IMG/VR virus record: IMGVR_UViG_3300040801_002948
Span: 1-64,000 of that record
DNA from: a virus
Direction: 5' to 3' (one strand)
DNA length: 64,000 nucleotides
This document shows, piece after piece, positions 27,478 to 42,517 of this stretch. The translations under genes and the position numbers were made by a program. Each line of letters begins with the position of its first letter. The stretch's first letter is position 1. Under the pieces are notes generated by a model. It was given only the letters and a program-made list of their open reading frames with translations. It did not search any database and was not told where the DNA came from.

Positions 27478-27552
27478 TTACTATCTTTGTACAAATCAAT
27501 TTATTAACCGTTGCGCGGTTTTTACTTTGGTTTAATGGGATTATGAAGATAT

Positions 27553-27587
27553 GGCCGGTACTCATGAAGCGCCGGCCTTTTCTTTTT
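27553..27587 (+). terminator. intrinsic terminator
   Basis: GGCCGG...CCGGCC stem followed by TTTTCTTTTT. Confidence 0.6.
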
Positions 27588-27598
27588 GCATCTTTTTG

Positions 27599-27666
27599 CT
27601 AAATTATTTGGTACTCTGAACATCTTGCTTTACCTTTATGGCATCGTTAACAACAAACCGAACGTC
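27599..27666 (+). promoter_or_regulatory. promoter-leader element, slightly decayed copy
   Basis: CTAAATTATTTGG, TACCTTTA, GGCATCGTTAACAACAAACCGAACGTC, ATG at 27667. Confidence 0.55.
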
Positions 27667-27915
27667 ATGAAAAATTACAGCGCCTTAGTAAAAAGCAAAG
27701 AAAAGCGGATTTTAACCGCAAAAGGGAATAAGTTTGTTTGGCGCTGCATTGACGTTGCAGCAGAACAGCGGGGCTTGAACCGTTATTCAAAAGAACTGAA
27801 TCCGCTGAAGGAAAAGCTTCGCAATTTGTTGCACCACTTGATAATTGATAAAGGGCTTTCAGCCACTGAAATAAAAGCGATTATCAAAGAAAGTTGCAAT
27901 CTTTTTGCCAAATAA
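27667..27915 (+). CDS. hypothetical protein (82 aa)
   Basis: Cassette ORF. The stop TAA is the centre of the next palindrome (27908-27920). Confidence 0.6.
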   Translation: MKNYSALVKSKEKRILTAKGNKFVWRCIDVAAEQRGLNRYSKELNPLKEKLRNLLHHLIIDKGLSATEIKAIIKESCNLFAK

Positions 27916-27975
27916 TTTGGTATTTACGAATAAGCGCTGTATATTTGAACCATCGTTAACAACAAACCGAACGTC
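27908..27975 (+). promoter_or_regulatory. promoter-leader element, full copy
   Basis: CCAAATAATTTGG, TATATTTG, AACCATCGTTAACAACAAACCGAACGTC, ATG at 27976. Confidence 0.7.
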
Positions 27976-28308
27976 ATGAAAAAGTCAATCGAAAATAAGG
28001 CTATCATTGAAGCACTGAAGGAAGTAGCAACTGACGGCTGGAAAGACAGCGCCACACATGCCACAATGGAAGCGGCGCTTGTGGCTGTGAACTATGCTTC
28101 AGGCATAAATTCAGGTTGGTACAATCCTAAAGCCGTAAAAGTGGAAGGGCTGGAAGGTTTTTTCATGGTCAATGAAAACGGCGGGCTTTGGTATGAATCA
28201 AGAATCATTGAAGCTTCAAACGGCTTCACTATTCAAAACATGACGCTAAAGGCGTTTAACGAATTTGAAGCAAATCTTGGTAAGCACCTTGACCGGCTTG
28301 AAAAATAA
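27976..28308 (+). CDS. hypothetical protein (110 aa)
   Basis: Cassette ORF. Confidence 0.6.
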   Translation: MKKSIENKAIIEALKEVATDGWKDSATHATMEAALVAVNYASGINSGWYNPKAVKVEGLEGFFMVNENGGLWYESRIIEASNGFTIQNMTLKAFNEFEANLGKHLDRLEK

Positions 28309-28323
28309 ACTTCAATCTTTTTG

Positions 28324-28394
28324 CCAAATAATTTGGCGCTTTCATTTACTTGCCGTATATTTGAACCATCGTTAACAACAAAACCACACAGACA
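28324..28394 (+). promoter_or_regulatory. promoter-leader element, full copy (consensus-like)
   Basis: CCAAATAATTTGG at 28324-28336, N20, TATATTTG at 28356-28363, AACCATCGTTAACAACAAAACCACACAGACA, ATG at 28395. Confidence 0.75.
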
Positions 28395-28790
28395 ATGACA
28401 GCTTCAATCAAAGTAGGCAGCAAAATCCGGGCAAAAGTCACTTCTTCTTCATCTTTTTACCTTGAAGTAGAAGGCAACGTCACCGCCATCAACGGCGCGC
28501 GCATTTCCATCCAAGCTACTATGGTAAAAGACCGCTACTCTAAGGAATGGAAGCAGCACCCAACGTCATGCGCTATGAACGTAAGGGAGGAAAATGCAAC
28601 GCTGATTGAAGCGGAAGGCGCGCCGGAAAGCACCGGTGAAATGCTTCAGCAGGTTGTTGCCGCGTTCCTGCCTGCCACGCGGGTAATGAACCAAGGCGAA
28701 CTTACCGCGCACATTCAGAAGATGGGCTATAGCCGGGCCTTTGCGGCTAAGCTTTCAAAAATGTGCTTCCTGAAAGCGCAAGGCAAGTAA
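28395..28790 (+). CDS. hypothetical protein (131 aa)
   Basis: Cassette ORF. Confidence 0.6.
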   Translation: MTASIKVGSKIRAKVTSSSSFYLEVEGNVTAINGARISIQATMVKDRYSKEWKQHPTSCAMNVREENATLIEAEGAPESTGEMLQQVVAAFLPATRVMNQGELTAHIQKMGYSRAFAAKLSKMCFLKAQGK

Positions 28791-28798
28791 AACAGGAA

Positions 28799-28840
28799 GC
28801 CCGGCAAGCGCTACCAAAAGCCATGGCGGGCAACTTTTTT
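28799..28840 (+). terminator. intrinsic terminator (family with 30659 and 31561)
   Basis: GCCCGGC...GGCGGGC stem (one mismatch) followed by AACTTTTTT. Confidence 0.5.
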
Positions 28841-28851
28841 CATCTTTTTCG

Positions 28852-28923
28852 CCAAATTATTTGGTATTTACAATAAAGCCCCGTATATTTGAACCATCGT
28901 TAACAGCAAAACACCACACACAC
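28852..28923 (+). promoter_or_regulatory. promoter-leader element, full copy
   Basis: CCAAATTATTTGG, TATATTTG, AACCATCGTTAACAGCAAAACACCACACACAC, ATG at 28924. Confidence 0.7.
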
Positions 28924-29175
28924 ATGAGAACGAAAATCACAGAAATCCGCGTAGTAATCACAACCAAGGCCCCTTTCCACGTGTGGGCCAAGTATGACAA
29001 CGGACTTCGCAAGTACGAAGGCTTTGACGTTGCTGAAACCGTTGAGGCGGCACATGAGCGCGCCCGCGAATTGGCAACCACGCTAAACGCGGACTTCCGT
29101 AGCGTGACAGACACCGTGAATGTTTCAGTATATGGCACTGACGGCGCTGAAACCAAAAGCAGCTACCGCGTTTAA
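28924..29175 (+). CDS. hypothetical protein (83 aa)
   Basis: Cassette ORF. The ORF-track extension from 28861 is a translation of the element. Confidence 0.6.
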   Translation: MRTKITEIRVVITTKAPFHVWAKYDNGLRKYEGFDVAETVEAAHERARELATTLNADFRSVTDTVNVSVYGTDGAETKSSYRV

Positions 29176-29184
29176 TGGGAAAAT

Positions 29185-29224
29185 AAGCCTGAAGGCATAA
29201 AAGGCCCTTCAGGCTTATTTCTTC
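29185..29224 (+). terminator. intrinsic terminator
   Basis: AAGCCTGAAGG / CCTTCAGGCTT 11-bp stem followed by ATTTCTTC. Confidence 0.6.
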
Positions 29225-29240
29225 ATTAAAATCACACAGC

Positions 29241-29453
29241 ATGTTTAAGCAGAAAAACGGCCTGCAAAAAGCGGGCGTTATTGTCATGATTCTTGGCGTT
29301 GTAGGCTTTTTGGTTTCAAATCAATTTGCGCTTTATCCGGGCGTTCAGTTCAAAGGCTACCTTGTGGCCACTGTTTTTGTCCTTGGCGGCCTTTTGATTA
29401 AAATCCAAGGGGACAACCAAGAAAAGAGCAAAAAAGGCTTTGACAACGAATAA
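29241..29453 (+). CDS. small 2-TM membrane protein (70 aa), holin-like topology
   Basis: TM segments AGVIVMILGVVGFLV and YLVATVFVLGGLLIKI. Charged C-terminal tail. ATG preceded by AAAATCACACAGC. Confidence 0.5.
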   Translation: MFKQKNGLQKAGVIVMILGVVGFLVSNQFALYPGVQFKGYLVATVFVLGGLLIKIQGDNQEKSKKGFDNE

Positions 29454-29500
29454 AAGCCTATATTAAGCGGTGAAGCTTACAGCTTTACCGTTGGCATAGT

Positions 29501-29541
29501 GCCCCGCATTACAAAAGAGTATTGCCGGGGCGCTTTTTTTT
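29501..29541 (+). terminator. intrinsic terminator
   Basis: GCCCCG...CGGGGC stem followed by GCTTTTTTTT. Confidence 0.6.
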
Positions 29542-29551
29542 CATCTTTTCG

Positions 29552-29622
29552 CCAAATTATTTGGTAATTACGAACAAGCGCTTTATATTTGTACCATCGT
29601 TAACAACAAAACCACACAGACA
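29552..29622 (+). promoter_or_regulatory. promoter-leader element, full copy
   Basis: CCAAATTATTTGG, TATATTTG, TACCATCGTTAACAACAAAACCACACAGACA, ATG at 29623. Confidence 0.7.
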
Positions 29623-29910
29623 ATGAAAAAGGCAACATTCCCAAAGCAGATGACAGAGCGCGGCCAAAAGTGGGCGGGCGTTCCCGTAGTCAAAACGATC
29701 ATTATCCGCGAAAGCGGCAACAAAGTTTTCAAGCCTTCAAAAGAAATCCCTTGCGCGGGTTGGTGGCTGTCATTCCTTGAAGAAAACGGTTTCTTCCGGC
29801 GCATGATTCAGGGGCGCATTGTAGGCACTACCACGGTACTTTGGGAAAATAACGAAGGTCAGCGCTTCCGCACTGACTTTGGCGCGGAAATGGAAGATAT
29901 TGAAGGCTAA
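29623..29910 (+). CDS. hypothetical protein (95 aa)
   Basis: Cassette ORF. Confidence 0.6.
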   Translation: MKKATFPKQMTERGQKWAGVPVVKTIIIRESGNKVFKPSKEIPCAGWWLSFLEENGFFRRMIQGRIVGTTTVLWENNEGQRFRTDFGAEMEDIEG

Positions 29911-29918
29911 AGGAACCT

Positions 29919-29950
29919 GCCCGGCGCTTGATAGGTGCCGGGCTTTATTT
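29919..29950 (+). terminator. intrinsic terminator; hairpin core identical to 33817-33843
   Basis: GCCCGGCGC-TTGATAG-GTGCCGGGC followed by TTTATTTT. Confidence 0.65.
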
Positions 29951-29962
29951 TAAATATTCAAG

Positions 29963-30020
29963 CCAAATGTCTTGGAATCCAAAATAAATGGCTTATTTTC
30001 GCATTAAATAAACCACACAG
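29963..30020 (+). promoter_or_regulatory. decayed promoter copy
   Basis: CCAAATGTCTTGG, N19, TATTTTCG, leader CATTAAATAAACCACACAG, ATG at 30021. Confidence 0.35.
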
Positions 30021-30224
30021 ATGAAAAAAGAGACATCAAGACGAATGAAAGCGGCCGCCGCTTGGGCCGAATCTGACGCTTTTGCACGTTGGCAAGCGTA
30101 TCAGCGGAAGCGGCCCACATGGTCAAACCCTACACACCCGAACCATGACAAATGGGTAGTTAGGAAAAACAAAGCTCTAAGGGCAAAAAGGGCTATTTAC
30201 CGGAAGCACAATATTTTAATTTGA
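30021..30224 (+). CDS. hypothetical basic protein (67 aa)
   Basis: ATG after AAACCACACAG. Confidence 0.5.
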   Translation: MKKETSRRMKAAAAWAESDAFARWQAYQRKRPTWSNPTHPNHDKWVVRKNKALRAKRAIYRKHNILI

Positions 30225-30409
30225 TACCCTACAAAGTCCGGCTTCAAGCCTTGGTGCGGGCGCTTTCTGTGTTCGTGTCAAAGCTTGAAGTTTTTATCAG
30301 CCAACACGAAGCCCAAAGCCCAACGGTTGCGGGTATTTTATCAAACATCAAAAGTCAAATTCAAAATGGCATCAGCAAAATCAACGAAGAAGCAAAGAAC
30401 GAAAAGTAA
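30221..30409 (+). CDS. doubtful ORF (62 aa, TTG start)
   Basis: No ATG start. Overlaps the 30366 ORF by 44 nt. Kept only because it fills an otherwise non-coding 140 nt. Confidence 0.2.
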   Translation: MIPYKVRLQALVRALSVFVSKLEVFISQHEAQSPTVAGILSNIKSQIQNGISKINEEAKNEK

Positions 30410-30653
30410 AGCGCCGGAAAAAGGGCGGTTTGTGCCACTTGCCACGGCGGCGGCTCAATACCATGACCTAATAGCGCAAAAACTAAAGGAAATGGGAAGA
30501 AACCCTTCTTCAATCGGTTCTGTGGCTTCAGACCCTATCAAAAGCAGCACGTTTCAGAACATGAAGCACGGGCAAGCCAGCGCGCCCACAATTGCAAAGG
30601 TGGAAGCGTGGCTTGGGAAAAAGCCTTCTGAAGTCTACCTGAAAATACAGTAA
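30366..30653 (+). CDS. small basic protein with XRE/Cro-like HTH C-terminus (putative regulator)
   Basis: The internal ATG was chosen. K-rich N-terminus. ...SSIGSVASDPIKSSTFQNMKHGQASAPTIAKVEAWLG resembles an HTH. Confidence 0.4.
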   Translation: MASAKSTKKQRTKSKAPEKGRFVPLATAAAQYHDLIAQKLKEMGRNPSSIGSVASDPIKSSTFQNMKHGQASAPTIAKVEAWLGKKPSEVYLKIQ

Positions 30654-30658
30654 TTCAG

Positions 30659-30698
30659 GCCCGGCCCGCCATGAAAAGCAAAGCCGGGCATTTTTTTT
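30659..30698 (+). terminator. intrinsic terminator (near-identical to 31561)
   Basis: GCCCGGC-CCGCCATGAAAAGCAAA-GCCGGGC followed by ATTTTTTTT. Confidence 0.7.
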
Positions 30699-30709
30699 GC
30701 ATCTTTTCG

Positions 30710-30779
30710 CCAAATAATTTGGCTTTTACATTTACTTCCTGTATATTTGAACCATCGTTAACAGCAAAACACCACACAC
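30710..30779 (+). promoter_or_regulatory. promoter-leader element, full copy
   Basis: CCAAATAATTTGG, TATATTTG, AACCATCGTTAACAGCAAAACACCACACAC, ATG at 30780. Confidence 0.7.
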
Positions 30780-31064
30780 ATGAAAAAGCAGGAATTCCAA
30801 GCAAAGGCAGAAAAGCAGGTTCAAGATTTTCTAAAGGCTTTTAATCAGGGGCAAATAGTTCTTGGCGGAAAGGTCTTCACCTTTGAAAGTGCCGGGAAGT
30901 ACAGCGTTTGCATAAAAGGCGAACGTGGCGCTTCTTACAGGGTTTCACCGTGCCCGAATTGCACAGTGGACGGTAATAAAGAATTAGCTGTTTACACTAT
31001 CAGCCGCAATTCGCGCGCTGTAGACTTTACTTTGATTAACGGGAAATACACTGAATTAAAATAA
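30780..31064 (+). CDS. hypothetical protein (94 aa)
   Basis: Cassette ORF. Contains CPNC. Confidence 0.6.
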   Translation: MKKQEFQAKAEKQVQDFLKAFNQGQIVLGGKVFTFESAGKYSVCIKGERGASYRVSPCPNCTVDGNKELAVYTISRNSRAVDFTLINGKYTELK

Positions 31065-31069
31065 AGTTG

Positions 31070-31137
31070 CCAAATTATTTGGCACTTTCGATTGCTTGCC
31101 CTATCTTTGAAACATCGTTAACAACAAACCGCAAGAC
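31070..31137 (+). promoter_or_regulatory. promoter-leader element, full copy
   Basis: CCAAATTATTTGG, TATCTTTG, AAACATCGTTAACAACAAACCGCAAGAC, ATG at 31138. Confidence 0.7.
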
Positions 31138-31554
31138 ATGCCACACATTCACTTTTCTTGGAAGACTTCAAAAACTGCAAACGGCTTTCAGTTCACAGTT
31201 AGCCTTAACCAATCACTAAGCGCGCCAAACGCAGAAGGCCGCTATGTGAACACTAAAGTAATTAAAACCGGCACGCTGCCCACGCGGGCCCGCGCAAAGA
31301 CAATGGCGCAAAAGTGGGTCAGGTTCTTTAAGTGGGAATGGAAAATTCGCCTTGAAGCGGCTGAAGAAGACCTTCAGATTTTAGAGCAAAGCGGCGCTTC
31401 AGGAATAACCGGTACAAACCGGGGCACTGTCATGACAAGCTTTGACGATGGCGTTTACTTGTTCCGGGCGCAAAACAATTTCTTCCTTCAGTCATCAGAC
31501 CGCCAAAAAGCACTGATGGCGCTTGCAGAAGTGTATATTGTAATGCGGGACTAA
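31138..31554 (+). CDS. hypothetical protein (138 aa)
   Basis: Cassette ORF. Confidence 0.6.
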   Translation: MPHIHFSWKTSKTANGFQFTVSLNQSLSAPNAEGRYVNTKVIKTGTLPTRARAKTMAQKWVRFFKWEWKIRLEAAEEDLQILEQSGASGITGTNRGTVMTSFDDGVYLFRAQNNFFLQSSDRQKALMALAEVYIVMRD

Positions 31555-31560
31555 ACGCAA

Positions 31561-31600
31561 GCCCGGCACGCCACGAAAAGCAAAGCCGGGCAACTTTTCT
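31561..31600 (+). terminator. terminator hairpin (near-identical to 30659)
   Basis: GCCCGGC-ACGCCACGAAAAGCAAA-GCCGGGC followed by AACTTTTCTT (weak T-run). Confidence 0.5.
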
Positions 31601-31612
31601 TACATTATCTTG

Positions 31613-31682
31613 CCAAATTATTTGGTAATTACAATTGAGCGCCGTATATTTGAACTATCGTTAACAGCAAAAGAAAGACATT
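31613..31682 (+). promoter_or_regulatory. promoter-leader element, full copy
   Basis: CCAAATTATTTGG, TATATTTG, AACTATCGTTAACAGCAAAAGAAAGACATT, ATG at 31683. Confidence 0.7.
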
Positions 31683-32033
31683 ATGTTTACAATCAATGAC
31701 CCGCGTTTCACAGACCCTTCAAAGAAAGCACAATTGGAAGCAGACCTGAAGCGGATAGCCGCTTACCTTGAGCGCACAGAAGCGTTTCAGGAAAGCTTGC
31801 GCGCTCAAGCGCCAAAGCGCCCGGAAGCGCCAAAGGTCGAATGGCAGGACTTTGAAGGCACTGAAGTTTTGCGCAAAGGCGCTGACGGCCGTTTTTTGGC
31901 TGTTCCTGCGAATGGCCGCAAATCTTGCCGCACTTATGCAATCATTGACACGCAAGACCGGTCAGATATCTTTTGCCAAGTATCTAAGGCCGAAGTTTAC
32001 AACTGGCTTGCAACTGCTAATGAAGATTTTTAA
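31683..32033 (+). CDS. hypothetical protein (116 aa)
   Basis: Cassette ORF. Confidence 0.6.
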   Translation: MFTINDPRFTDPSKKAQLEADLKRIAAYLERTEAFQESLRAQAPKRPEAPKVEWQDFEGTEVLRKGADGRFLAVPANGRKSCRTYAIIDTQDRSDIFCQVSKAEVYNWLATANEDF

Positions 32034-32053
32034 CACTTTCAAACCATACAGAC

Positions 32054-32314
32054 ATGAGCAAAGAAGAATTTGAAGCTTTAGACCCTAACAGCCCAAAGGC
32101 TAAAGCAATGCGAAAAAACGCTGAAGAAGCGGGCAAGAAAGGCTACCTTGCTAAGGTCAAGGAACGTAAAACAAAGAAGCGGCGCTTGATTCAGAAAGGA
32201 GGCGTTAACACAAAGACCGGCGAGTTTAAGCCGGAAGAAACGCTGAAAGTAAAGGGCGGCTTTAAAACCCGCATAAGGGCCCGCTTCTTCAGGGACAAAA
32301 CAGAAGAAGAATAA
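32054..32314 (+). CDS. very basic small protein (86 aa)
   Basis: About 30% K/R. ATG preceded by CAAACCATACAGAC. Confidence 0.55.
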   Translation: MSKEEFEALDPNSPKAKAMRKNAEEAGKKGYLAKVKERKTKKRRLIQKGGVNTKTGEFKPEETLKVKGGFKTRIRARFFRDKTEEE

Positions 32315-32335
32315 ACGGTTTGTTTTAGGTTGTTA

Positions 32336-32369
32336 GGCCCGCACAGAAGCGCTGTGTGGGCCTTTTTTT
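32336..32369 (+). terminator. intrinsic terminator
   Basis: GGCCCGCACAG / CTGTGTGGGCC stem (one mismatch) followed by TTTTTTT. Confidence 0.7.
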
Positions 32370-32382
32370 GTATATTGGTGGC

Positions 32383-33036
32383 ATGGCAAAGCAAATTGTA
32401 TTTTTGGACGCGGGGCACGGCGGAATTGACCCGAACACGGGGCAATATACCACGGCCCCAAGCAAAATGTTCAGGTTTGACCCTGACCAACTGGAAGCCC
32501 ACGGTGACGGCTATATTTATGAAGGCGTTTTGAACCGGGCTATCTGTGATTTTATGGCCTATCATTTGCGGAATTTGGGAATTTTAGTTTTCCCGGTTTA
32601 TGACGCTGTTGAAGATACGGCGCTTGATACGCGGGTAAGTATGGCAAACGCTGTATTTGCTTCAATGGGCCCTTCTGACGCGGGTTTATTTGTTTCTGAA
32701 CATTGCAACGCTTCAAGGGCGCATAATGCTTCAGGATTTGAAATATTCACTTCGCCGGGCAATACAAAATCAGACCGGGCAGCAGATTTTATTTATACGC
32801 AAGTTGGGGCCTTGGTGCCTTCTTTGCGGAAGCGCCCTGACTACAGTGACGGCGATGCAGATAAAGAAGCTTTTTTTAAAGTATTGGTTGAAACAGCTTT
32901 GCCGGCCGTACTTATTGAAAATGGGTTTATGGACTTTTTGAAAGACGCTGAGCGTTTATTAAACCCTTCCTTCCTAAATTTAATGGCACAAGCCAAAGCA
33001 ATTGGAATCTTCAAATATTTTGCAACTATCAAATAA
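32383..33036 (+). CDS. N-acetylmuramoyl-L-alanine amidase (Amidase_3-type endolysin)
   Basis: FLDAGHGGIDPNTG, VSEHCNAS and AVLIENGFMDF match the MurNAc-LAA zinc-ligand pattern. Confidence 0.85.
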   Translation: MAKQIVFLDAGHGGIDPNTGQYTTAPSKMFRFDPDQLEAHGDGYIYEGVLNRAICDFMAYHLRNLGILVFPVYDAVEDTALDTRVSMANAVFASMGPSDAGLFVSEHCNASRAHNASGFEIFTSPGNTKSDRAADFIYTQVGALVPSLRKRPDYSDGDADKEAFFKVLVETALPAVLIENGFMDFLKDAERLLNPSFLNLMAQAKAIGIFKYFATIK

Positions 33037-33092
33037 TTTGCATAAATTGCCGCTTTAGTCCATTACACACTATATCCAAGCACTGCCCAAGT

Positions 33093-33124
33093 CCTGAAAT
33101 TAAACCTTCAGGGCTTTTTTTTTG
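33093..33124 (+). terminator. intrinsic terminator
   Basis: CCTGAA/TTCAGG stem followed by GCTTTTTTTTT. Confidence 0.5.
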
Positions 33125-33134
33125 CATCTTTTTG

Positions 33135-33205
33135 CCAAATAATTTGGCGCTTTCGTTTACTTCCTTTATATTTGTACCATCGTTAACAACAAAACCACAC
33201 AGACA
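33135..33205 (+). promoter_or_regulatory. promoter-leader element, full copy
   Basis: CCAAATAATTTGG, TATATTTG, TACCATCGTTAACAACAAAACCACACAGACA, ATG at 33206. Confidence 0.7.
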
Positions 33206-33397
33206 ATGAAAAAGTCATTAACAGAGTTGGAAGAAAAAGCGGCACAGATTGCAGAAAAGCACCCAAAGACAAAAGCCAAGGTTATCTTCAGCCCGTGGGC
33301 GCATGGCTACTTTATTGAAGTTGCCACAGTAGACCAAGCAAAAGCGCTGAGCGAAATTCATAAAGGCTTCCGCTTTTCTTCCGGTTCTTATCAATAA
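33206..33397 (+). CDS. hypothetical protein (63 aa)
   Basis: Cassette ORF. Confidence 0.55.
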   Translation: MKKSLTELEEKAAQIAEKHPKTKAKVIFSPWAHGYFIEVATVDQAKALSEIHKGFRFSSGSYQ

Positions 33398-33403
33398 TAC
33401 AAA

Positions 33404-33455
33404 GCCCGGCAAAAAATAATCGCCAAATATTTTGGAATTGCCGGGCGGCTTTTTT
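33404..33455 (+). terminator. terminator hairpin that encloses the next -33 palindrome in its loop
   Basis: GCCCGGCAA (33404-12) / TTGCCGGGC (33438-46) followed by GGCTTTTTT. The loop carries CCAAATATTTTGG. Confidence 0.55.
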
Positions 33456-33492
33456 ATCTTTGAACCATCGTTAACAACAAAACCACACAGTC
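33423..33492 (+). promoter_or_regulatory. promoter-leader element, full copy
   Basis: CCAAATATTTTGG, N20, TATCTTTG, AACCATCGTTAACAACAAAACCACACAGTC, ATG at 33493. Confidence 0.65.
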
Positions 33493-33810
33493 ATGAAGAT
33501 TCAGGATTTTCTTACGGCAAGCGCAAACCACAGCCGCATAGAATTTAACGTTAAAGGCCGGTCGTTTACGCACTTTTACACGCGTGAACAGTGGGAAGAA
33601 GCGCTGATTGAAAACGGCCTTAGCCGCCGGTTTGCAAGCCTTATTTTCGATAAGTTTCTTGGCCATGACAGCGCGCCAAGAACAATTGGCGAAAAGATTC
33701 AAATGCACGTAAAAACGGTAAAGCAGGCGCGCGAATATGGCGAAGCCTTGCAGGATTGCACAAACGCGGCTGAGCTTGAAGCGTTTTGCGAGTATTTTAA
33801 CAATAAGTAA
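33493..33810 (+). CDS. hypothetical protein (105 aa)
   Basis: Cassette ORF. Confidence 0.6.
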   Translation: MKIQDFLTASANHSRIEFNVKGRSFTHFYTREQWEEALIENGLSRRFASLIFDKFLGHDSAPRTIGEKIQMHVKTVKQAREYGEALQDCTNAAELEAFCEYFNNK

Positions 33811-33816
33811 CAACGG

Positions 33817-33843
33817 GGCCCGGCGCTTGATAGGTGCCGGGCC
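33817..33843 (+). other. conserved hairpin without T-run (core identical to 29919-29943)
   Basis: GGCCCGGCGC-TTGATAG-GTGCCGGGCC, 16 nt upstream of the ATG at 33860. Confidence 0.6.
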
Positions 33844-33859
33844 TACAAAACCACACAAA

Positions 33860-34210
33860 ATGGAAGTTCAAGATATTGTGGACGAAATCAACTTTAGAAA
33901 AGAAGAAGCAGGCCGCCAAGCCAAGGTAATGCGCGCGGCTTCCGCGCAAACATTTGACGAAGAACTATCTTCAAGCTGTTTCAACATGCAGCTTGCCCTT
34001 TCCCGGTTCCAAAAAGAGTTGATAATGTTGCGCGGCAATATTCAGGAAAAGTCCGACTTTATGAAAGTCCTGAATCAAAAGGCAGCGCAAGTTGAAAAAG
34101 CGATTCTTGACCATTACAAAGAAGGGCAAGAACCGGCCCGGCACCTTGGGTTTATGTATGAATTTCTGAAGAAGCTAAAGGCGAAAATTTATGACGGTGC
34201 GCAAGATTAA
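33860..34210 (+). CDS. hypothetical coiled-coil protein (116 aa)
   Basis: ATG preceded by AAAACCACACAAA. The ORF-track extension from 33737 reads through the hairpin. Confidence 0.55.
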   Translation: MEVQDIVDEINFRKEEAGRQAKVMRAASAQTFDEELSSSCFNMQLALSRFQKELIMLRGNIQEKSDFMKVLNQKAAQVEKAILDHYKEGQEPARHLGFMYEFLKKLKAKIYDGAQD

Positions 34211-34452
34211 CGGCGGCCGCGCTTATTTTACGCGCGCCGGGCTTTTTTTAATGGCGTTCACCACGCTTTCAGAATGGCGCGCTTTTGATATTCGCGCGCG
34301 GGCTTGGTTCTTGTCCCTGTCAACGCATAGAGTGTACAGGGCCGAAGAACAGCCTGTCAAGTATCTTTTCAAATACCGGTCTTTGGTAGTGTTCGGCATC
34401 AGCTTTGGCTTTGGTGCGCGGCCTGCCAAAGGTTGGGGCAAAATCAAATCTT

Positions 34453-34863
34453 ATGCCCTTACAGAGCTATAGGCCAACATCTTTGCACCCTTCAGTAAAG
34501 ATTGGCGACCACGGTTTTTGGTGGTGCCTTGGTTGGATTATTGAAGCCCAAGAACACCCGCTTTTATTGCCCTATACTTGCTATAGGGACACGGACACGG
34601 AAGAAGACGGTGAGCAAGACTTTGGCACAGTCCGTGACGCGGTTCAGCACGCTATCAGAAACCCGTTCCTTGCTGCTGATAGGAACCTTTCTGACTACGG
34701 GCACACACAGGCACGCCGGGTGCCTGAAGGTATCTTCAGGGGCTTTAAATGGCGCTTTGACGGCCGTTTCAATTGCTACTTCATTGAAGGGCATAGCGTG
34801 CCACAATTAAGAAAAACTGACATTTACACAACAATAAAAACAATGCAAGATGGCAAAAGGTAG
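34453..34863 (+). CDS. hypothetical protein (136 aa)
   Basis: First ATG of the ORF. The start is uncertain and no promoter copy lies upstream. Confidence 0.4.
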   Translation: MPLQSYRPTSLHPSVKIGDHGFWWCLGWIIEAQEHPLLLPYTCYRDTDTEEDGEQDFGTVRDAVQHAIRNPFLAADRNLSDYGHTQARRVPEGIFRGFKWRFDGRFNCYFIEGHSVPQLRKTDIYTTIKTMQDGKR

Positions 34864-35119
34864 CCAGTTCTTATTTGTTTACACAGGCAAGCGGACGTTC
34901 CAGTTTTACGCTTCAGATATTGAAGTGTTTAACCATTATAGAGTAAACGAGCGTTTTGTTTGCCGGGTATCTTTCAAAAAAAGCCCTGACGGCTTAAACG
35001 TGCCTTATATAGGGTTTACCGTTTCGAGTTTCAAGGAAGTGCGCGCTTTATCTCAATGGCTTGATGAAAGCAGGGGAAGCGGCACAGATGACTATTTTTT
35101 AACAATAAAAACCACATAA
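34850..35119 (+). CDS. hypothetical protein (89 aa)
   Basis: Overlapping ATG start. Confidence 0.5.
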   Translation: MAKGSQFLFVYTGKRTFQFYASDIEVFNHYRVNERFVCRVSFKKSPDGLNVPYIGFTVSSFKEVRALSQWLDESRGSGTDDYFLTIKTT

Positions 35120-35120
35120 C

Positions 35121-35339
35121 ATGGAAGACTTTCGTTTTGTAGAACGCGTAAATGACGGCATTACAAAGGGCTTTAATCTTTTGACATGGTACGGCGGCAA
35201 AGACTACCTGACCAAGTTTGCCTTCCTTGGATTCATAAAGTATGAAGACAAGCCGCTTGTTTTGAACATTCTTTTTGTGGGCCTGCCTTGGTACATTTGG
35301 GCATTAGCCGGAATTCTTTATTTTTTCTTGACCCGGTAA
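35121..35339 (+). CDS. small membrane protein (72 aa)
   Basis: C-terminal hydrophobic LVLNILFVGLPWYIWALAGILYFFL. ATG preceded by AAAAACCACATAAC. Confidence 0.5.
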   Translation: MEDFRFVERVNDGITKGFNLLTWYGGKDYLTKFAFLGFIKYEDKPLVLNILFVGLPWYIWALAGILYFFLTR

Positions 35340-35349
35340 GCCGTTGCAA

Positions 35350-35385
35350 TACAGTCAGTTATAAAAGCTGACTGTATTTTTTTGC
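35350..35385 (+). terminator. intrinsic terminator
   Basis: ATACAGTCAG / CTGACTGTAT perfect 10-bp stem followed by TTTTTT. Confidence 0.8.
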
Positions 35386-35395
35386 ATCTTTTTCG

Positions 35396-35464
35396 CCAAA
35401 TAATTTGGCATTTGTAATTACTCGCCGTATATTTGAACTATCGTTAACAACAAAACCACACAGC
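35396..35464 (+). promoter_or_regulatory. promoter-leader element, full copy
   Basis: CCAAATAATTTGG, TATATTTG, AACTATCGTTAACAACAAAACCACACAGC, ATG at 35465. Confidence 0.7.
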
Positions 35465-35713
35465 ATGAATATCAAGACGCAAATCACAGAAACAGCAGAA
35501 TACAGAAGCACTTTAGTCAAAGTTGGCAAGACCGAATGGGCGGTCATGGTGGTGACTGGAAAAACAAATTACGTGTCAGTGCGCAAGGTTACAAGTAACC
35601 CGTTCGGCGCGCTGGGAAAGCAGTTTGAAAACGCTGATGCTGCTATTGCAAATTACAAGTCAGCAAAGATGCAAGCTATGTTGATTCAGGTATTTGACAT
35701 GCTTCAAAAGTAA
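35465..35713 (+). CDS. hypothetical protein (82 aa)
   Basis: Cassette ORF. Confidence 0.6.
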   Translation: MNIKTQITETAEYRSTLVKVGKTEWAVMVVTGKTNYVSVRKVTSNPFGALGKQFENADAAIANYKSAKMQAMLIQVFDMLQK

Positions 35714-35742
35714 AAATAAGCCGGGCTTTAGGGTAAAACCTG

Positions 35743-35813
35743 CCAAATGATTTGGTTATTATAATTGTCCGCCGTATATTTGAACTATCGTTAACAACAA
35801 AACACCACACGAC
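35743..35813 (+). promoter_or_regulatory. promoter-leader element, full copy
   Basis: CCAAATGATTTGG, TATATTTG, AACTATCGTTAACAACAAAACACCACACGAC, ATG at 35814. Confidence 0.7.
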
Positions 35814-36113
35814 ATGACAAATTCAGAAAAGCTTGGCATTACCTTTGAAAACATTATGGCGCTTGGCGCTGAAACCATCGCCCGCCGTTCAGCGCGGGTT
35901 TATATCAACTACCTGTATTATATGAATGGTGGCGGTGGCTACACTAAGAAAGCCGTTGAAAAGATGGAAGCGCGCCAAAAGGAACTGACGCTTCAGGACG
36001 TTGAAGGCTTTGCCCGGTCAGTTGTCCGGGTAATTGATAAAGCGCCGGAAACGTGCCCAACAAAGCGCTATTTTCAAAAAGCTTATGCGCAATGGTTTGC
36101 GCCCAAAAAATAG
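35814..36113 (+). CDS. hypothetical protein (99 aa)
   Basis: Cassette ORF. Confidence 0.6.
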   Translation: MTNSEKLGITFENIMALGAETIARRSARVYINYLYYMNGGGGYTKKAVEKMEARQKELTLQDVEGFARSVVRVIDKAPETCPTKRYFQKAYAQWFAPKK

Positions 36114-36165
36114 ACTATAATAAGCCGGGCTTTAGGCCCGGTATTTCTTCACCTTACAACCAATA

Positions 36166-36366
36166 ATGATGAAACCGAACGTAGTATTTTTTGACGGGAC
36201 TTCCTACTATGTTGACAGCGCTGAAATGGCCGAGCAAGAAAAGGCTGACGGCGCTGAAGTGGTGGCTTCTTTTGACACTATGGAAGAAGCTGAAGCTTTG
36301 GCTGATGAAAAAATGGCCGAAGCTTACCCGCCGCACATGAACCGTTCCTTCACCGGTTACAGGTAG
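36166..36366 (+). CDS. small acidic protein (66 aa)
   Basis: About a quarter of residues are D/E. No own promoter copy. Confidence 0.5.
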   Translation: MMKPNVVFFDGTSYYVDSAEMAEQEKADGAEVVASFDTMEEAEALADEKMAEAYPPHMNRSFTGYR

Positions 36367-36404
36367 ACTAACAGCCTGAAGGTGAGCAACTTGAAAAATA
36401 AGTG

Positions 36405-36472
36405 CCAAATAATTTGGTTTATAAAGTTGCTTGCCTTATCTTTGAAACATCGTTAACACAAACCACGCAAAC
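36405..36472 (+). promoter_or_regulatory. promoter-leader element, full copy
   Basis: CCAAATAATTTGG, TATCTTTG, AAACATCGTTAACACAAACCACGCAAAC, ATG at 36473. Confidence 0.7.
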
Positions 36473-36892
36473 ATGAAAGACAGACAGTTTATTCAAAGCT
36501 TGATAGACCAATTGCATTTTAACCAGTCAATAAGCTTTGGTACAGAAGAAGACCTTCTGACCGTAACGCACATGCGCGTTAGCGCCTATGAAAGCGCTTT
36601 CTTTTTCACCTTAAATGGGCAAGCGCATGACAAGTATAAAACCGCGTTAGGCGCGGGCCTTGGGTGCAATGGCTTTCTTGAAAAAGGTTTCCGGCTTGAA
36701 CTTGAGCCGGAAGAAGCTGTCATGGCCCTTAGAATGGCTTTAGAAAGGCATGATTCAGAACTTGTTTTGGAGCTTCTGAACCCTGACCGGCGCGAAAGCT
36801 TGCCGGATTGGGAAGAAGCGCCTGACTACATTTTTGATGACTGGCAGGGCTATGAAAGCAAGGCATTGAAATTTCTTGAACGGTTCCAGTAA
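36473..36892 (+). CDS. hypothetical protein (139 aa)
   Basis: Cassette ORF. Confidence 0.6.
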   Translation: MKDRQFIQSLIDQLHFNQSISFGTEEDLLTVTHMRVSAYESAFFFTLNGQAHDKYKTALGAGLGCNGFLEKGFRLELEPEEAVMALRMALERHDSELVLELLNPDRRESLPDWEEAPDYIFDDWQGYESKALKFLERFQ

Positions 36893-36903
36893 AAATTGCA
36901 ATA

Positions 36904-37344
36904 ATGATTGATTATAAAACAATAAAGGGTGACATAAAACTTTGGCTTTGCACCGGGAAAGGCGGCGCAAAGAAGCGCATAAACGCAAAGCGGCTGAAGA
37001 CACCAAAAGCGGCCGCTTTGTATGCAGAAAAGACAGGGCTTGAACGGCCTATAGTAGTGACCGGCCTTTTAACGCACGCGGAAACAAAGCCTGTCTTCCG
37101 GCTTGAACGGCCGGGCTTTGAACAGTTCTTGCTTGACCAAACAATAAAGGTAGCCGCCAAGCACCTTGAAGCATACCGGGCGCGAATGGAAGGCGATGAA
37201 AAAGCAAAGGCACAAATGGAAGACCTGTTTTTATGCTTTTGCGCGCTGAATAAGGAAGCCGCAAAAGTTTCAACTGAGCTTGCCGGGGCTGTTTACCGGG
37301 CTTGGTCTGACGGCGCTTTTTTGCCGGTGAAGATTATAGTTTAA
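36904..37344 (+). CDS. hypothetical protein (146 aa)
   Basis: Second gene of the last cassette operon. Confidence 0.55.
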   Translation: MIDYKTIKGDIKLWLCTGKGGAKKRINAKRLKTPKAAALYAEKTGLERPIVVTGLLTHAETKPVFRLERPGFEQFLLDQTIKVAAKHLEAYRARMEGDEKAKAQMEDLFLCFCALNKEAAKVSTELAGAVYRAWSDGAFLPVKIIV

Positions 37345-37349
37345 AGATA

Positions 37350-37366
37350 TTTTTGTTGTAACGATG
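37350..37366 (+). other. anti-leader site B (reverse complement of the conserved leader core)
   Basis: TTTTTGTTGTAACGATG compared with the reverse complement of CATCGTTAACAACAAAA: one base missing. Lies between the TAA at 37342-37344 and the terminator at 37374-37409. Confidence 0.6.
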
Positions 37367-37373
37367 TTTTACA

Positions 37374-37409
37374 GCCGCGTGCCTTTTGCTTGGTGCGCGG
37401 CTTTTTTTT
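37374..37409 (+). terminator. intrinsic terminator
   Basis: GCCGCG...CGCGGC stem followed by TTTTTTTT. Confidence 0.7.
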
Positions 37410-37429
37410 ATCTTGCACAAAAGTCTATT

Positions 37430-38945: not shown

Positions 38946-39055
38946 TGGATTCGCCGTTGTTAGGTTCAGCAACAGGTGAAGACCGGCTTTCGGCAATGCT
39001 TAACCTAGATTTTGAATTGACAGTTGATTACCTAACTAGGAAAATGATTAAATGA
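38942..39055 (+). CDS. tiny ORF (37 aa), doubtful
   Basis: ATGA overlaps at both ends link the 38070 and 39052 ORFs. Confidence 0.25.
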   Translation: MMDSPLLGSATGEDRLSAMLNLDFELTVDYLTRKMIK

Positions 39056-40740
39056 TGAACAAGAAAAAACAGGCTTTGCGCCTAATTAGGCAACAGCAGC
39101 TTCAAGAAAGGCGCGAATTGCTGCTTGCTGAACGCGAATGGGATATAATGTTGCCGGAAGAACCGGTGACGGTATTCAACGGGCCCGTTGCAAACGCGCG
39201 GAATTGGGGCTTTGACTACCTGACAAAAGGCCTTTCAAAGTTTGAAATGAAAAGCCCGGTCACAATAAATGTTGCTGACACGGGCGCGCTGTCTGCGAAT
39301 AAGTATCTTCAGCACCTTGATACGGAGCTTGCCAAGGACTACACAGATGGCCGTGACGGGCTTTTGGATGGCCATGACCACTTCAGCCATTGCCAAGGTA
39401 TTATTGGCGCTACAAAAGAAGGTATTGGCGTATTATGGCACCCTTTGCTTCGCCAACATTTCAGTCAGTTCTTGCAATTCGGAAGCCGCGTACTTCTGAA
39501 CGGCGGTGCAGGTTCTTATGAATGGGTTGAACGGTACGCAAACGCAATGGCCGACTTGTACACCAAAAACCCGCGCATAAAAGACAAGCCTTTCATTCTG
39601 TCTTGGTCATTCGGTGGCAGTGGTAGCCATCAAGGCGTTGCAGACGCTGTTAACTACCTTGAAGACTTGGGCATTTTTGTTGTTTCTTCAGCGGGCAATA
39701 ATGGCGTTTCAGTGGGCTTTCCGGCGCGCCTTGCGCCTGTCTTTGCTTCAGCGGCCTTTGACAGCGGCGAAAACCGGGCAAGCTTCAGCGGGCGCGGGCA
39801 AGAACTTTCTTTTTGCGCGCCGGGCGTTCAAATCCTGTCTTGCGGTGCTGACCAAGATGAACTGTTGTACATGAACGGCACTTCAATGTCAGGGCCCGGG
39901 AACGCGGCAATGCTTGCTTTGCTGTTGGCGCAAAATCCGGATTTGACACCAAAAGAAGTCCGCGCTTTGTTGGAAGCGGGCGACCTTACCAAAGACCTTG
40001 GAAACGCGGGATTCGATGACTTGTATGGTTGGGGCGCAACTACTGCGGGCACCGTTCTTGATGAACCCGCTGACGTTCCAGACAATCCAGATGAACCGGG
40101 CGACGGCCCCGGCGATGAACCCGGAAACCCGGAAGCACCGATTGACAAAAAGCCGTTTAAAGAGCGTCAGCACGCTTTTGAACTGGAAGTTGAAGCGCTT
40201 ATTGTTTACAGCCGGATGAATCAGCGGGCGCGGGCGGAAATGGGCCTTTCTGATGAACCGTTTGAATTTATGCTTGATTCGCCGGAAGGCGCAAACATAC
40301 TCAGCAGGCAAGCGGCGGAATTTGCCAGACTGGACGCTATTGAAATGAAAGTTACTTCAAAGCGTGCCGGGGAAGCCATTTCGGCCTACTTGCTTGAATA
40401 TGCTGAAGGGTATTATCAAAACCGTGGCTTTGGCCTTCCTTACCTTGTGGATATCAAGTATATTCTTGGCGTGGCCGGGTATTTCCTTTTGTTGGACTTG
40501 TTCAAGAACAAGCGGGACTTGTTCAATGAGATCACAAACGTCCGCTTCCTTGGTTGGGAAGGTGAAAGCTATTCAGGCATAATGCACCGGGCCCCGGTAT
40601 GGGAACGCGGCACAACGCCATACCTTAGCACCATTGAAGAATTTACCACGGCATTTGAACAGCAATTTGGCTTGCGTTTGCCGGTTCCAAATGGCGGCGC
40701 ATATGTTGACGGCGGGGAACGAATTATTTCTAAGCGATGA
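39052..40740 (+). CDS. subtilisin-like serine protease (peptidase S8) with Pro/Asp/Glu-rich linker and ~190-aa C-terminal domain
   Basis: Catalytic triad contexts: INVADTGA (Asp), HFSHCQGIIGA (His), MNGTSMSGPGNAAMLALLLA (Ser). Linker: DEPADVPDNPDEPGDGPGDEPGNPEAP. Confidence 0.85.
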   Translation: MMNKKKQALRLIRQQQLQERRELLLAEREWDIMLPEEPVTVFNGPVANARNWGFDYLTKGLSKFEMKSPVTINVADTGALSANKYLQHLDTELAKDYTDGRDGLLDGHDHFSHCQGIIGATKEGIGVLWHPLLRQHFSQFLQFGSRVLLNGGAGSYEWVERYANAMADLYTKNPRIKDKPFILSWSFGGSGSHQGVADAVNYLEDLGIFVVSSAGNNGVSVGFPARLAPVFASAAFDSGENRASFSGRGQELSFCAPGVQILSCGADQDELLYMNGTSMSGPGNAAMLALLLAQNPDLTPKEVRALLEAGDLTKDLGNAGFDDLYGWGATTAGTVLDEPADVPDNPDEPGDGPGDEPGNPEAPIDKKPFKERQHAFELEVEALIVYSRMNQRARAEMGLSDEPFEFMLDSPEGANILSRQAAEFARLDAIEMKVTSKRAGEAISAYLLEYAEGYYQNRGFGLPYLVDIKYILGVAGYFLLLDLFKNKRDLFNEITNVRFLGWEGESYSGIMHRAPVWERGTTPYLSTIEEFTTAFEQQFGLRLPVPNGGAYVDGGERIISKR

Positions 40741-41385: not shown

Positions 41386-41424
41386 GCGCCGGGCCCCAAT
41401 GACTGGAAGCCCGGCGCTTTTTTT
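41386..41424 (+). terminator. intrinsic terminator at a convergent gene junction
   Basis: GCGCCGGGC / GCCCGGCGC 9-bp stem followed by TTTTTTT. Confidence 0.75.
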
Positions 41425-41782
41425 ACATGCCGTCAATAAGGTCTTCAATTTCGTCCATAACGCCGGAAAAAGATGGGTTAATGATTGATGTTAAAATCTG
41501 AAGGGCGGCTTCTGCCTTTTCCCGGTCATTGTCCATGACTAGCAAATTAGCCGTCTGAAAAGCCTTTTGCCCGGTCAATATCTTTGAACCCGGCCCGGCC
41601 CTTAATGTGCCGTTAACGTCAACAAAAACGCTTTCATTGTCATCAGTCTGGACAATTGACACAAGCGCTTTAACTTCTTTTCCAGGATAAACCCAAGCGC
41701 CGGCCTTGACCATAGCTTTTGCCAAGTCTTTGTTTTTGGCCCAACTGCCCTGTTGTGTTCGTACTACGAAAATAATTTCCAT
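41423..41782 (-). CDS. hypothetical protein (119 aa)
   Basis: Third gene of a minus-strand operon. Confidence 0.6.
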   Translation of the reverse strand: MEIIFVVRTQQGSWAKNKDLAKAMVKAGAWVYPGKEVKALVSIVQTDDNESVFVDVNGTLRAGPGSKILTGQKAFQTANLLVMDNDREKAEAALQILTSIINPSFSGVMDEIEDLIDGM

Positions 41783-41808
41783 ATCTGCATGGTTTAAATG
41801 TTAAAAAA

Positions 41809-42446: not shown

Positions 42447-42517
42447 TGTCTGTGTGGTTTTGTTGTTAACGATGGTTCAAAGATAAGACAACCAAGCGAG
42501 AATACCAAATTATTTGG
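42447..42517 (-). promoter_or_regulatory. promoter-leader element, full copy on the minus strand
   Basis: Minus-strand reading: CCAAATAATTTGG, TATCTTTG, AACCATCGTTAACAACAAAACCACACAGACA, ATG (42446). Confidence 0.7.

Follow-up and report, generated by a model that had tools for sequence, protein, structure and literature searches.

T4-type phages carry promoter-early stem-loop (PeSL) cassettes in their hyperplastic regions (Arbiol et al. 2010, PMC2839356; Comeau et al. 2014, PMC4122927). Another dense set of small early genes is the host-takeover module of phage SPO1, given as 26 genes in 12.4 kb in a report (PMC6873191) that cites Stewart et al. 1998. The locus described here belongs to IMG/VR record IMGVR_UViG_3300040801_002948, a 67,384-bp metagenomic contig; the window analysed is positions 1-64,000 of that record. 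At 27599-37409 (9.8 kb) the window carries 13 co-oriented plus-strand copies of an intergenic element, plus one decayed copy, in front of small open reading frames (ORFs). This array is read as a PeSL-like hyperplastic accessory block of a Bacteroidota phage in which promoter modules would double as recombination substrates, with a probability of roughly 0.75. The figure is for the explanation as a whole, in which the source would be a lytic-looking ~67-kb tailed phage with a Bacteroidota host and the array would consist of ~16 short transcription units, 13 of them starting with a standardised module. The analogy with PeSLs had already been drawn in a first-pass annotation of the sequence and is apt (PMC2839356, PMC4122927). 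The annotation also named no case of such shuffling in Bacteroidota phages, and searches of the literature brought up neither promoter-terminator cassette arrays nor cassette shuffling for phages of this phylum.

The element and its predicted function

A repeat search of 26-39 kb returns families of 9-12 copies that are at most 114 nt long. The element is ~70-90 nt long and comprises a 13-nt palindrome (CCAAATWATTTGG), a 19-nt spacer, the box TAnnTTTG, 4 nt, the block ATCGTTAAC, a G-poor leader and an ATG. The register is identical in all 20 full copies, in which the leader measures 23-28 nt. The window contains 20 sites with the palindrome CCAAATWWTTTGG at up to one mismatch, where 2.0 are expected, and 22 occurrences of the leader core CATCGTTAACA, where 0.7 are expected; none of 100 shuffles reaches either count. 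The 13 ATCGTTAAC cores of the array lie at 27643, 27952, 28368, 28896, 29596, 30754, 31114, 31657, 33179, 33467, 35440, 35787 and 36449, each 23-28 nt 5′ of an ATG that opens an ORF of 63-139 aa. Extraction in register bears out the 13 copies and the decayed one at 29963 that were first counted. The decayed copy has a palindrome with 3 mismatches and no -7 box, and keeps the distal leader AAACCACACAG-ATG.

Two features of the original description do not hold, namely that the boundaries are identical and that the element is confined to the array. Mean pairwise identity of the copies is 68%, with the best pairs, such as those at 28368 and 33179, reaching 94% over 84 nt. Conservation is 87-94% in the palindrome, -7 box and initial transcribed sequence, as against 45% for the spacer and the upstream parts; the palindrome, which overlaps the -33 region in all copies, stands at 89% and the initial transcribed sequence is the most conserved block (94%). 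Eight further copies lie outside the array, six in the replication module on the plus strand and two on the minus strand. The array nevertheless holds 13 of the 21 copies within 9.8 kb, a density of 1.3 per kb versus 0.15 per kb elsewhere (~9-fold). The outlying copies are as follows.

1844, 7752, 8257, 11819, 15355 and 23013, plus strand: palindromes of the six replication-module copies (within 1844-23083)
1910, 7823, 8326, 11880, 15424 and 23084, plus strand: starts of the genes led by these six copies
41423-42798 (given also as 41423-42834), minus strand: inverted block with two element copies, palindromes at 42786-42798 and 42505-42517
42729-42526, 42446-42177, 42183-41809 and 41782-41423, minus strand: four small ORFs of the inverted block

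With the S8-peptidase genes on one side and the tail module on the other, this block resembles an inverted mini-array.

The Bacteroidota primary-sigma promoter consists of a -33 TTTG and a -7 TAnnTTTG, with the G of the -7 box at position -5 (Baez et al. 2019, PMC6847099). The repeated motif, known from sequence, fits this Bacteroidota (sigma-ABfr) version of the host primary-sigma consensus. Its -7 box reads TAT[AC]TTTG in 16 of 20 copies, and a -33 TTTG stands exactly 20 nt upstream in every copy. Judged by the consensus, the element is a predicted promoter for the host primary sigma factor joined to a leader that lacks a Shine-Dalgarno (SD) sequence. The right arm of the palindrome would provide the -33 TTTG, followed after a fixed 20-nt gap by the -7 TAnnTTTG. 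Because the geometry matches the Bacteroidota promoter, with the -7 G at -5, transcription is predicted to start at the A of ATCGTTAAC. SD-independent translation would be served by the leader, whose 23-28 nt are poor in G, free of structure and marked by AAAA at -12 to -15 and by A at -3. Leaders and the first ~38 coding nt are nearly unstructured (minimum free energy 0 to -3 kcal/mol). The distal leader motif ACCACAC stands before 21 of 92 genes in all, promoter-less ones included, and would thus act as a translation-initiation region in its own right.

The remaining translation starts of the phage are of the same kind. A strict SD sequence precedes none of the 92 genes, and SD-like 4-mers are no commoner than at random positions. 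A is strongly enriched at -14 to -10 and occupies -12 in 68 of the 92 genes. SD-less, A-enriched starts are a signature of Bacteroidota (Baez et al. 2019, PMC6847099). Together with the names attached to the TerL homologs (Pontibacter, Hymenobacter and Bacteroidota metagenome-assembled genomes) and the invariant TTTG in the -7 boxes of related phages, they point to a Bacteroidota host. The element precedes replication and array genes and never structural genes, and is therefore best read as an early/middle promoter. It would be the general early/middle promoter of the phage, densest in the array, and not an array-specific device.

The high conservation of the initial transcribed sequence can also be read in another way, with the -12 to +10 block TATATTTGAACCATCGTTAACA as a single-block promoter read by an RNA polymerase that the phage encodes or delivers with the virion. 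Multiple copies of the block occur in unrelated AT-rich phage fragments, and crAss-like Bacteroidota phages carry a virion RNA polymerase (bioRxiv 10.1101/2020.03.07.982082). However, the block holds a perfect host -7 box with the -33 TTTG at the canonical distance. According to that preprint, the early transcripts made by the virion polymerase of phage phi14:2 have no common upstream motif and the host-polymerase promoters have one. Pfam searches of the 69 non-array and 26 array proteins recognise no RNA polymerase, sigma factor, integrase or repressor, and the DFDxD motif is absent from all large proteins. A dedicated phage polymerase is thus very unlikely to be the reader of the element.

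Still more improbable is that the element is a non-autonomous mobile element, similar to a miniature inverted-repeat transposable element, or a homing-endonuclease target that has spread through the genome. Such an origin would suit the many copies, the palindrome and the HNH endonuclease that Pfam detects in the window. Against it, every copy is co-oriented with its gene at a fixed distance from the ATG, terminal inverted repeats and target-site duplications are absent, and the conserved parts map exactly onto promoter and leader functions.

A second motif, TATATTGK, is over-represented in the window (12 observed, 2.4 expected) and usually follows a T-run. It is found at 659, 9734, 24894 and 32371, and also at 11456, 21738, 22287, 31534 and 40857. 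The element-less genes at 703 and 9764, TerS at 24933 and the amidase gene at 32383 have it upstream. The motif may be a second (perhaps late) promoter class without the -33 palindrome, in which case the amidase mRNA may be nearly leaderless.

Related lineages and the turnover of cassettes

No DNA-level relative of the window is found among GenBank phages (megablast), in IMG/VR (TerL and element pattern) or in GTDB genomes (element pattern). A first metagenome scan for close relatives gave nothing useful, and when IMG/VR was scanned with the elements of the related phages, the L002 contig itself was the sole return. Among TerL homologs the nearest have identities of 60%, 58%, 49%, 48% and 46% and lie on contigs of 45-65 kb. 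In all five lineages (L001, L002, L004, L066 and L068) TerL is followed directly by an array of small, well-spaced ORFs of at least 9-10 kb, which in L066/L067 ends at the tape-measure gene. The position between terminase and morphogenesis genes, remarked on from the window, is thus conserved in five related lineages.

Elements of the relatives were obtained by lineage-specific extraction, which replaced a generic palindrome-plus-box scan that was too noisy. Each lineage has a repeated element of its own, and in all of them exactly 20 nt separate the end of the right palindrome arm, TT(T/A)GG, from a -7-type box, behind which comes an A/C-rich leader peculiar to the lineage. L004 and L068 have the stretch TTTG-AAnC-ATCG in common with the window. 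TTTG never varies, not even in L002, where the -7 box has lost its TA (CACCTTTG). An own element in each lineage within a shared layout indicates a design that is old, clade-wide and evolving in concert within each genome. The L068 elements (e.g., 11585-11640) have a longer conserved leader (~45 nt). It starts with a 5′ hairpin, GAAGCGGGAAGCGCTTC, that is conserved too and may add to mRNA stability.

The arms of the palindrome vary between lineages largely symmetrically, and within L068 alone CCTAA...TTAGG is swapped for CCAAA...TTTGG. Symmetric differences of this type point to a dimeric DNA-binding factor. In the preferred reading the 13-nt palindrome over the -33 region is most likely an operator for such a putative dimeric regulator, superimposed on the promoter. 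Phages with comparable sites are the mycobacteriophages of clusters A and K, whose stoperators and start-associated sequences are short intergenic sites, 20-35 per genome, with an orientation tied to transcription. Stoperators are asymmetric repressor sites of temperate phages, not promoters. The palindromes of the window could by this analogy be chiefly operators of a phage repressor or activator, and the array a regulon switched as a block, for example in early shut-off or immunity. This is a tentative alternative. The 89% conservation of the palindrome in a fixed place over the -33 region, its recurrence at the same position in each lineage with arms of its own, and the symmetric swap in L068 all speak for an operator. 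On the other side, the right arm is the expected -33 TTTG, so that sigma recognition explains part of the conservation; two L068 copies are asymmetric; and neither a repressor nor a helix-turn-helix protein or integrase is detected by Pfam in the window. An operator role is in any case compatible with a promoter-cassette array and not exclusive of it.

Turnover of the genes themselves is extensive. Only 5 of 26 cassettes have homologs in the arrays of the relatives. About 8 of 16 genes of the upstream module are common to the window and L002, and these are collinear. The three cassette genes that the window shares with L002 each stand first after an element in both genomes, and their order is changed (C-A-B versus A-B-C). 

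Exchange can be followed most closely around one cassette. A homolog search with the protein of 31683-32033 (w31683) finds a 79%-identical protein on twelve ~1.5-kb contigs from several projects (L072-L080), as well as a homolog of 47% amino acid identity in the L002 array. One contig from a sister sample (L081, P0129) carries a w31683 variant with an in-frame 6-aa deletion (APKRPE) that is otherwise identical, a case of micro-heterogeneity in the phage population. Nucleotide homology between L072 and the window (~80%) begins at the 3′ end of the spacer and the -7 box and stops ~8 nt beyond the stop codon, with no relationship in the -33 region, in part of the leader or in the genes downstream. 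L118, a 17.6-kb IMG/VR contig, has a Terminase_1-type TerL and an HK97-type portal, both unrelated, and a RecT/YqaJ module. L072 and L118 nevertheless share a 96-nt promoter element (92%) and a 115-aa gene (~90%), in a block (L072:130-1334 versus L118:8817-9267) that is ~90% identical at the nucleotide level in phages whose terminases are unrelated. The promoter of L118 adjoins the 115-aa gene without a gap, whereas in L072 two cassettes (~750 bp) lie between promoter and gene, namely the w31683 homolog and a 90-aa gene. The crossover falls inside the ~24-nt leader core, which is repeated at all three L072 junctions, so that direct repeats flank the indel. This is the outcome described for PeSL-mediated shuffling (PMC2839356).

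The element copies of the window are mosaic as well. Their best partners are mostly non-adjacent, sub-segments of one copy have different partners, and of 666 site pairs that are informative, 424 show all four gametes. Scars are suggested at two junctions, 33818, where a hairpin is fused to a leader, and 29963, where the promoter is decayed. Taken together, these patterns are indirect but real support for exchange at element boundaries. In the proposed mechanism, promoter/leader copies would act as short direct repeats between unrelated ORFs and so as substrates for homologous recombination. Recombination between copies would delete, insert or reorder whole cassettes and leave expression undisturbed, as PeSLs do in T4-type phages. 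Cassette exchange is observed in the relatives and would extend to the window genome.

The notion of exchange at cassette boundaries, put forward from the window alone, thus finds indirect support in the L072/L118 indel, the cassette-limited homology of L072, the L002 reorder and the mosaic copies; in the window phage itself no indel is seen. Likewise, breakpoints in the relatives (a block end and a crossover) fall within the element, but the close relatives of the window are collinear with it and 99.9-100% identical.

These same data bear on a simpler explanation, an ordinary early region in which a strong promoter and an optimal leader are kept by selection. Cassettes would then turn over by illegitimate recombination and loss (the 'moron' model), and the element would be no special recombination site. 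It would fit that the element also drives conserved replication genes, that conservation centres on three functional blocks, namely palindrome, -7 box and initial transcribed sequence, as against 45% identity in the spacer and farther upstream, that the relatives are mosaic everywhere, beyond the array, and that near-identical contigs show no indels. It does not readily account for a crossover inside the repeated leader core (L072/L118), a homology block starting within the element (L072 and the window), three L002-shared genes that are element-led in both genomes in changed order, or sub-segments of a single copy with different best partners elsewhere in the genome. An ordinary early region is possible, yet distinctly the less probable account when set beside a PeSL-like block.

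Several observations weigh against the PeSL-like reading. Nine population contigs from six sister samples are 99.9-100% identical to the window, collinear and free of indels, and near-identical contigs of L002, L066 and L068 are likewise without indels. The recombination evidence comes from short contigs of other phages and amounts to one indel, not a rate; this single indel could stem from illegitimate recombination, and four-gamete patterns in short constrained motifs can come from recurrent mutation. Promoter activity, start sites, timing and terminator efficiency are predictions from consensus, and the element also scores as a fair sigma-70-type promoter (TTGGYA-17-TATATT). No candidate for a palindrome-binding protein was found. 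Four junctions of the array have no terminator, so some read-through polycistrons are likely. Searches of Pfam, PHROGs, NCBIfam and PADLOC place no cassette protein in a family for host takeover, defence or anti-defence, and AlphaFold2 models of w31683 and of the protein of 36473-36892 are too poor to help, with predicted local distance difference test (pLDDT) values of 57 and 49.

The promoter-leader core extends beyond this clade. A second metagenome scan, made with the leader core, gave matches that are mostly due to chance and also a set of AT-rich fragments that have no proteins in common with the window, in which the core TAT(A/C)TTTG-N4-ATCGTTAACA occurs in multiple copies before small ORFs. 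L010 has 7 copies in 3.5 kb with terminators of its own, L034 has 4, and L016 and L029 have 2 each; the core is also found in L008/L043, L014 and L021/L047. The -33 regions of these fragments are quite different, some with inverted repeats spanning the spacer. Since the ATCGTTAACA core and -7 box are multi-copy in unrelated AT-rich fragments, and since a ~90% identical promoter-plus-gene block is common to phages with different terminase types, a bolder and rather doubtful proposal can be made. The promoter-leader would be a shared linker language by which unrelated Bacteroidota phages swap ready-to-express cassettes, with the lineage-specific palindrome read by a putative co-evolving dimeric regulator (~20 sites per genome). 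A blastn search with the core against isolated phages gave noise only. In bacterial genomes a scan with the -7/initial-transcribed core gave 36 single hits, about the chance frequency, the best-looking of which precedes a Saprospiraceae extracytoplasmic function (ECF) sigma gene, and the idea of host mimicry was dropped.

Map of the array and its genomic setting

The array contains ~24-25 ORFs of 62-217 aa. With a codon model trained on the large genes of the phage, all of them score positive in frame and negative off-frame, in line with the ~25 ORFs first counted; the lowest scores belong to 30021-30224 and 34191-34472. Terminator-like sites number 37 in 27-38 kb versus 18.8 +/- 4.2 in shuffles. 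A separate scan for hairpins with T-runs places them after 12-14 genes (free energy, dG, -12 to -23 kcal/mol), among them the sites that were originally cited. For about 9 of the 13 copies in the array, the ~60 nt upstream contain a GC hairpin that ends in a T-run or U-rich tail. The hairpins and T-runs would insulate many of the units, and strong terminators at 27547 and 37373 would bracket the array and separate it from the late terminase and tail operons. The description of the units as mostly self-terminated single genes is accurate in part, in that 8 of the 13 element-led units are single-gene, whereas four junctions go unterminated. The features of the array, all on the plus strand, are as follows.

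27547-27592, plus strand: terminator (hairpin dG -16 kcal/mol and T-run) closing the TerL/221-aa late unit before the first element
27599-27666, plus strand: copy 1, with palindrome CTAAATTATTTGG, weak -7 box TACCTTTA and ATCGTTAAC leader; gene 27667-27915 (82 aa, basic)
27908-27975, plus strand: copy 2, gene 27976-28308 (110 aa); the palindrome overlaps the preceding stop codon with no terminator between
28324-28394, plus strand: copy 3, gene 28395-28790 (131 aa); terminator 28799-28840
28852-28923, plus strand: copy 4, genes 28924-29175 (83 aa) and 29241-29453 (70 aa, two hydrophobic segments); terminator 29498-29541
29552-29622, plus strand: copy 5, gene 29623-29910 (95 aa; 29% homolog in L002); hairpin 29919-29943 and T-run
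29963-30020, plus strand: decayed element with CCAAATGTCTTGG and distal leader AAACCACACAG; genes 30021-30224 and 30366-30653; terminator 30659-30698
30710-30779, plus strand: copy 6, single gene 30780-31064 (94 aa; 38% homolog in L002)
31070-31137, plus strand: copy 7, gene 31138-31554 (138 aa); hairpin 31561-31591 (dG -16.9, z -3.1) with weak U-run
31613-31682, plus strand: copy 8, genes 31683-32033 (116 aa) and 32054-32314 (86 aa, basic); terminator 32335-32363
32383-33036, plus strand: N-acetylmuramoyl-L-alanine amidase (endolysin) gene without the main element; T-run and TATATTGG (32371); terminator 33089-33116
33135-33205, plus strand: copy 9, gene 33206-33397 (63 aa)
33404-33492, plus strand: copy 10, in which terminator hairpin 33404-33446 encloses the palindrome 33423-33435; genes 33493-33810 (105 aa) and 33860-34210 (116 aa)
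33818-33859, plus strand: apparent junction scar, a 25-nt hairpin fused straight to distal leader CTACAAAACCACACAAA-ATG, the promoter being absent
34453-34863, 34850-35119 and 35121-35339, plus strand: element-less stretch of three genes; terminator 35345-35386
35396-35464, plus strand: copy 11, gene 35465-35713 (82 aa)
35743-35813, plus strand: copy 12, gene 35814-36113 (99 aa); hairpin 36124-36142; acidic gene 36166-36366 (66 aa, isoelectric point (pI) 4.2)
36405-36472, plus strand: copy 13, genes 36473-36892 (139 aa, acidic) and 36904-37344 (146 aa)
37373-37410, plus strand: strong closing terminator (dG -21 kcal/mol and T8); the next gene starts at 37430

The 25-nt GC hairpin GCCCGGCGCTTGATAGGTGCCGGGC is identical at 29919-29943 and 33818-33842, 3.9 kb apart after two unrelated genes, and the second copy has no T-run. 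Three gene starts were adjusted. Gene 33860-34210 begins after the hairpin, and the first post-array gene starts at 37430 and not at 37364. ORF 34191-34472 is doubtful, as it overlaps a probable terminator and a ~200-nt GC-rich non-coding gap at 34254-34452. This gap has no element and folds moderately more stably than shuffles (z -2.1).

The cassette proteins were first described as mutually dissimilar, with an amidase as the sole recognisable function, and this description stands. No paralogs are found among them, and in Pfam, PHROGs, NCBIfam and PADLOC only the amidase has a match, leaving 25 of 26 ORFs without a family; the profile searches that had been recommended for anti-defence and host-takeover families thus came back empty. 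The amidase is an ordinary lysis gene. The compositional extremes pointed out earlier are real, with 36166-36366 acidic, 32054-32314 basic (pI 10.1) and 29241-29453 carrying two hydrophobic segments. An exhaustive homolog search with w30780 yields a sparse family of stand-alone small proteins; its matches to heterogeneous beta-repeat proteins were judged non-specific. By analogy, the cassette genes would probably serve in host interaction. In L066 an ArdC-N / MPTase-PolyVal (anti-restriction-like) gene at 14187-15080 lies inside the TerL-proximal array, and may be taken as a hint, the only functional one, of counter-defence genes in these arrays.

The genome opens at 1-24 kb with replication genes (primase-helicase, SSB, exonucleases, methylase). 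TerS/TerL at 24.9-26.8 kb are followed by the array, by genes without assigned function and an S8 peptidase, and by the minus-strand block; beyond it come the tape-measure tail module and the prohead protease and capsid region. The module order across 24.9-54 kb (TerS/TerL, accessory array, tail (tape-measure) genes, prohead protease, capsid) is unusual and conserved. The S8 subtilase (39052-40740) sits among late genes. GC skew is ~0 at 28000-32000, the first half of the array, versus ~+0.1 elsewhere, and AT skew is up there; the shift suggests that the composition of this part, and perhaps its origin, is unlike that of the rest of the genome. Rfam and tRNA scans gave no matches.

Comparison with known systems

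If the PeSL-like reading is true, a type of shuffling whose documented cases to date all come from T4-type phages infecting Proteobacteria and cyanobacteria would extend to another phage type and host phylum, and would be built there from the Bacteroidota's own promoter and SD-less leader. The array also offers 20 natural variants of a compact promoter/leader/terminator toolkit for a phylum in which genetic parts are scarce, and marks ~25 ORFan proteins as candidates for host-interaction screening. The strict conservation of ATCGTTAAC across unrelated phages could point to an additional step in transcription or translation initiation of Bacteroidota.

Like stoperators, the sites described here are short, conserved, intergenic, multi-copy and oriented with transcription. 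Unlike them, the palindrome is embedded in a promoter, and no repressor, integrase or lysogeny module is detected by Pfam. Integron arrays are similar in that a row of unrelated small ORFs is split by a repeated, partly palindromic site, but here neither an integrase (Pfam) nor attC-type sites are found, and the cassettes have promoters of their own in place of a common Pc. Arbiol et al. (PMC2839356) draw the integron comparison for PeSLs too.

The crAss-like Cellulophaga phage phi14:2, likened here by description, has extended tripartite 'middle' promoters for the host RNA polymerase that are repeated and conserved in relatives (bioRxiv 10.1101/2020.03.07.982082). According to that preprint, they precede conserved middle and late genes (RNA polymerase, IHF, portal) and not ORFan cassettes, and cassette shuffling is not among the features it describes. 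The SPO1 host-takeover module shares with the array ~25 small genes, mostly without an assigned function, in ~10 kb of short operons, and the combination of a strong consensus promoter with a strong translation start (PMC6873191), both predicted in the present case. The SPO1 module differs in lying in the terminal redundancy and in encoding several products that are toxic or shut off host functions.

The closest match is with PeSLs. Both are composite intergenic modules in which a promoter of the host primary-sigma consensus is combined with a stem-loop terminator, a signal for translation start and an ATG, and both occur in many copies massed where small ORFans lie between conserved modules. 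The hairpin of copy 33404-33492 is inside the promoter, as in some PeSL subclasses, and the crossovers of cassette indels in the relatives map downstream of the -7 box and before the ATG, as is reported for PeSL mini-circles. The differences lie in the parts. The promoter here is of the Bacteroidota -33/-7 type, in keeping with another host phylum, and not sigma-70 -35/-10; a conserved A/C-rich leader replaces the SD sequence; a conserved 13-nt palindrome over the -33 region and a conserved initial transcribed sequence are added; and separate upstream terminators of varied sequence take the place of the shared GGGG...CCCC motif. The carrier is a ~67-kb tape-measure-type tailed phage, known from its sequence alone, and not a T4-like myovirus. 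The region is judged not to be a new kind of system but to correspond, in a Bacteroidota phage, to the variable early-gene regions known from T4-like and SPO1 phages.

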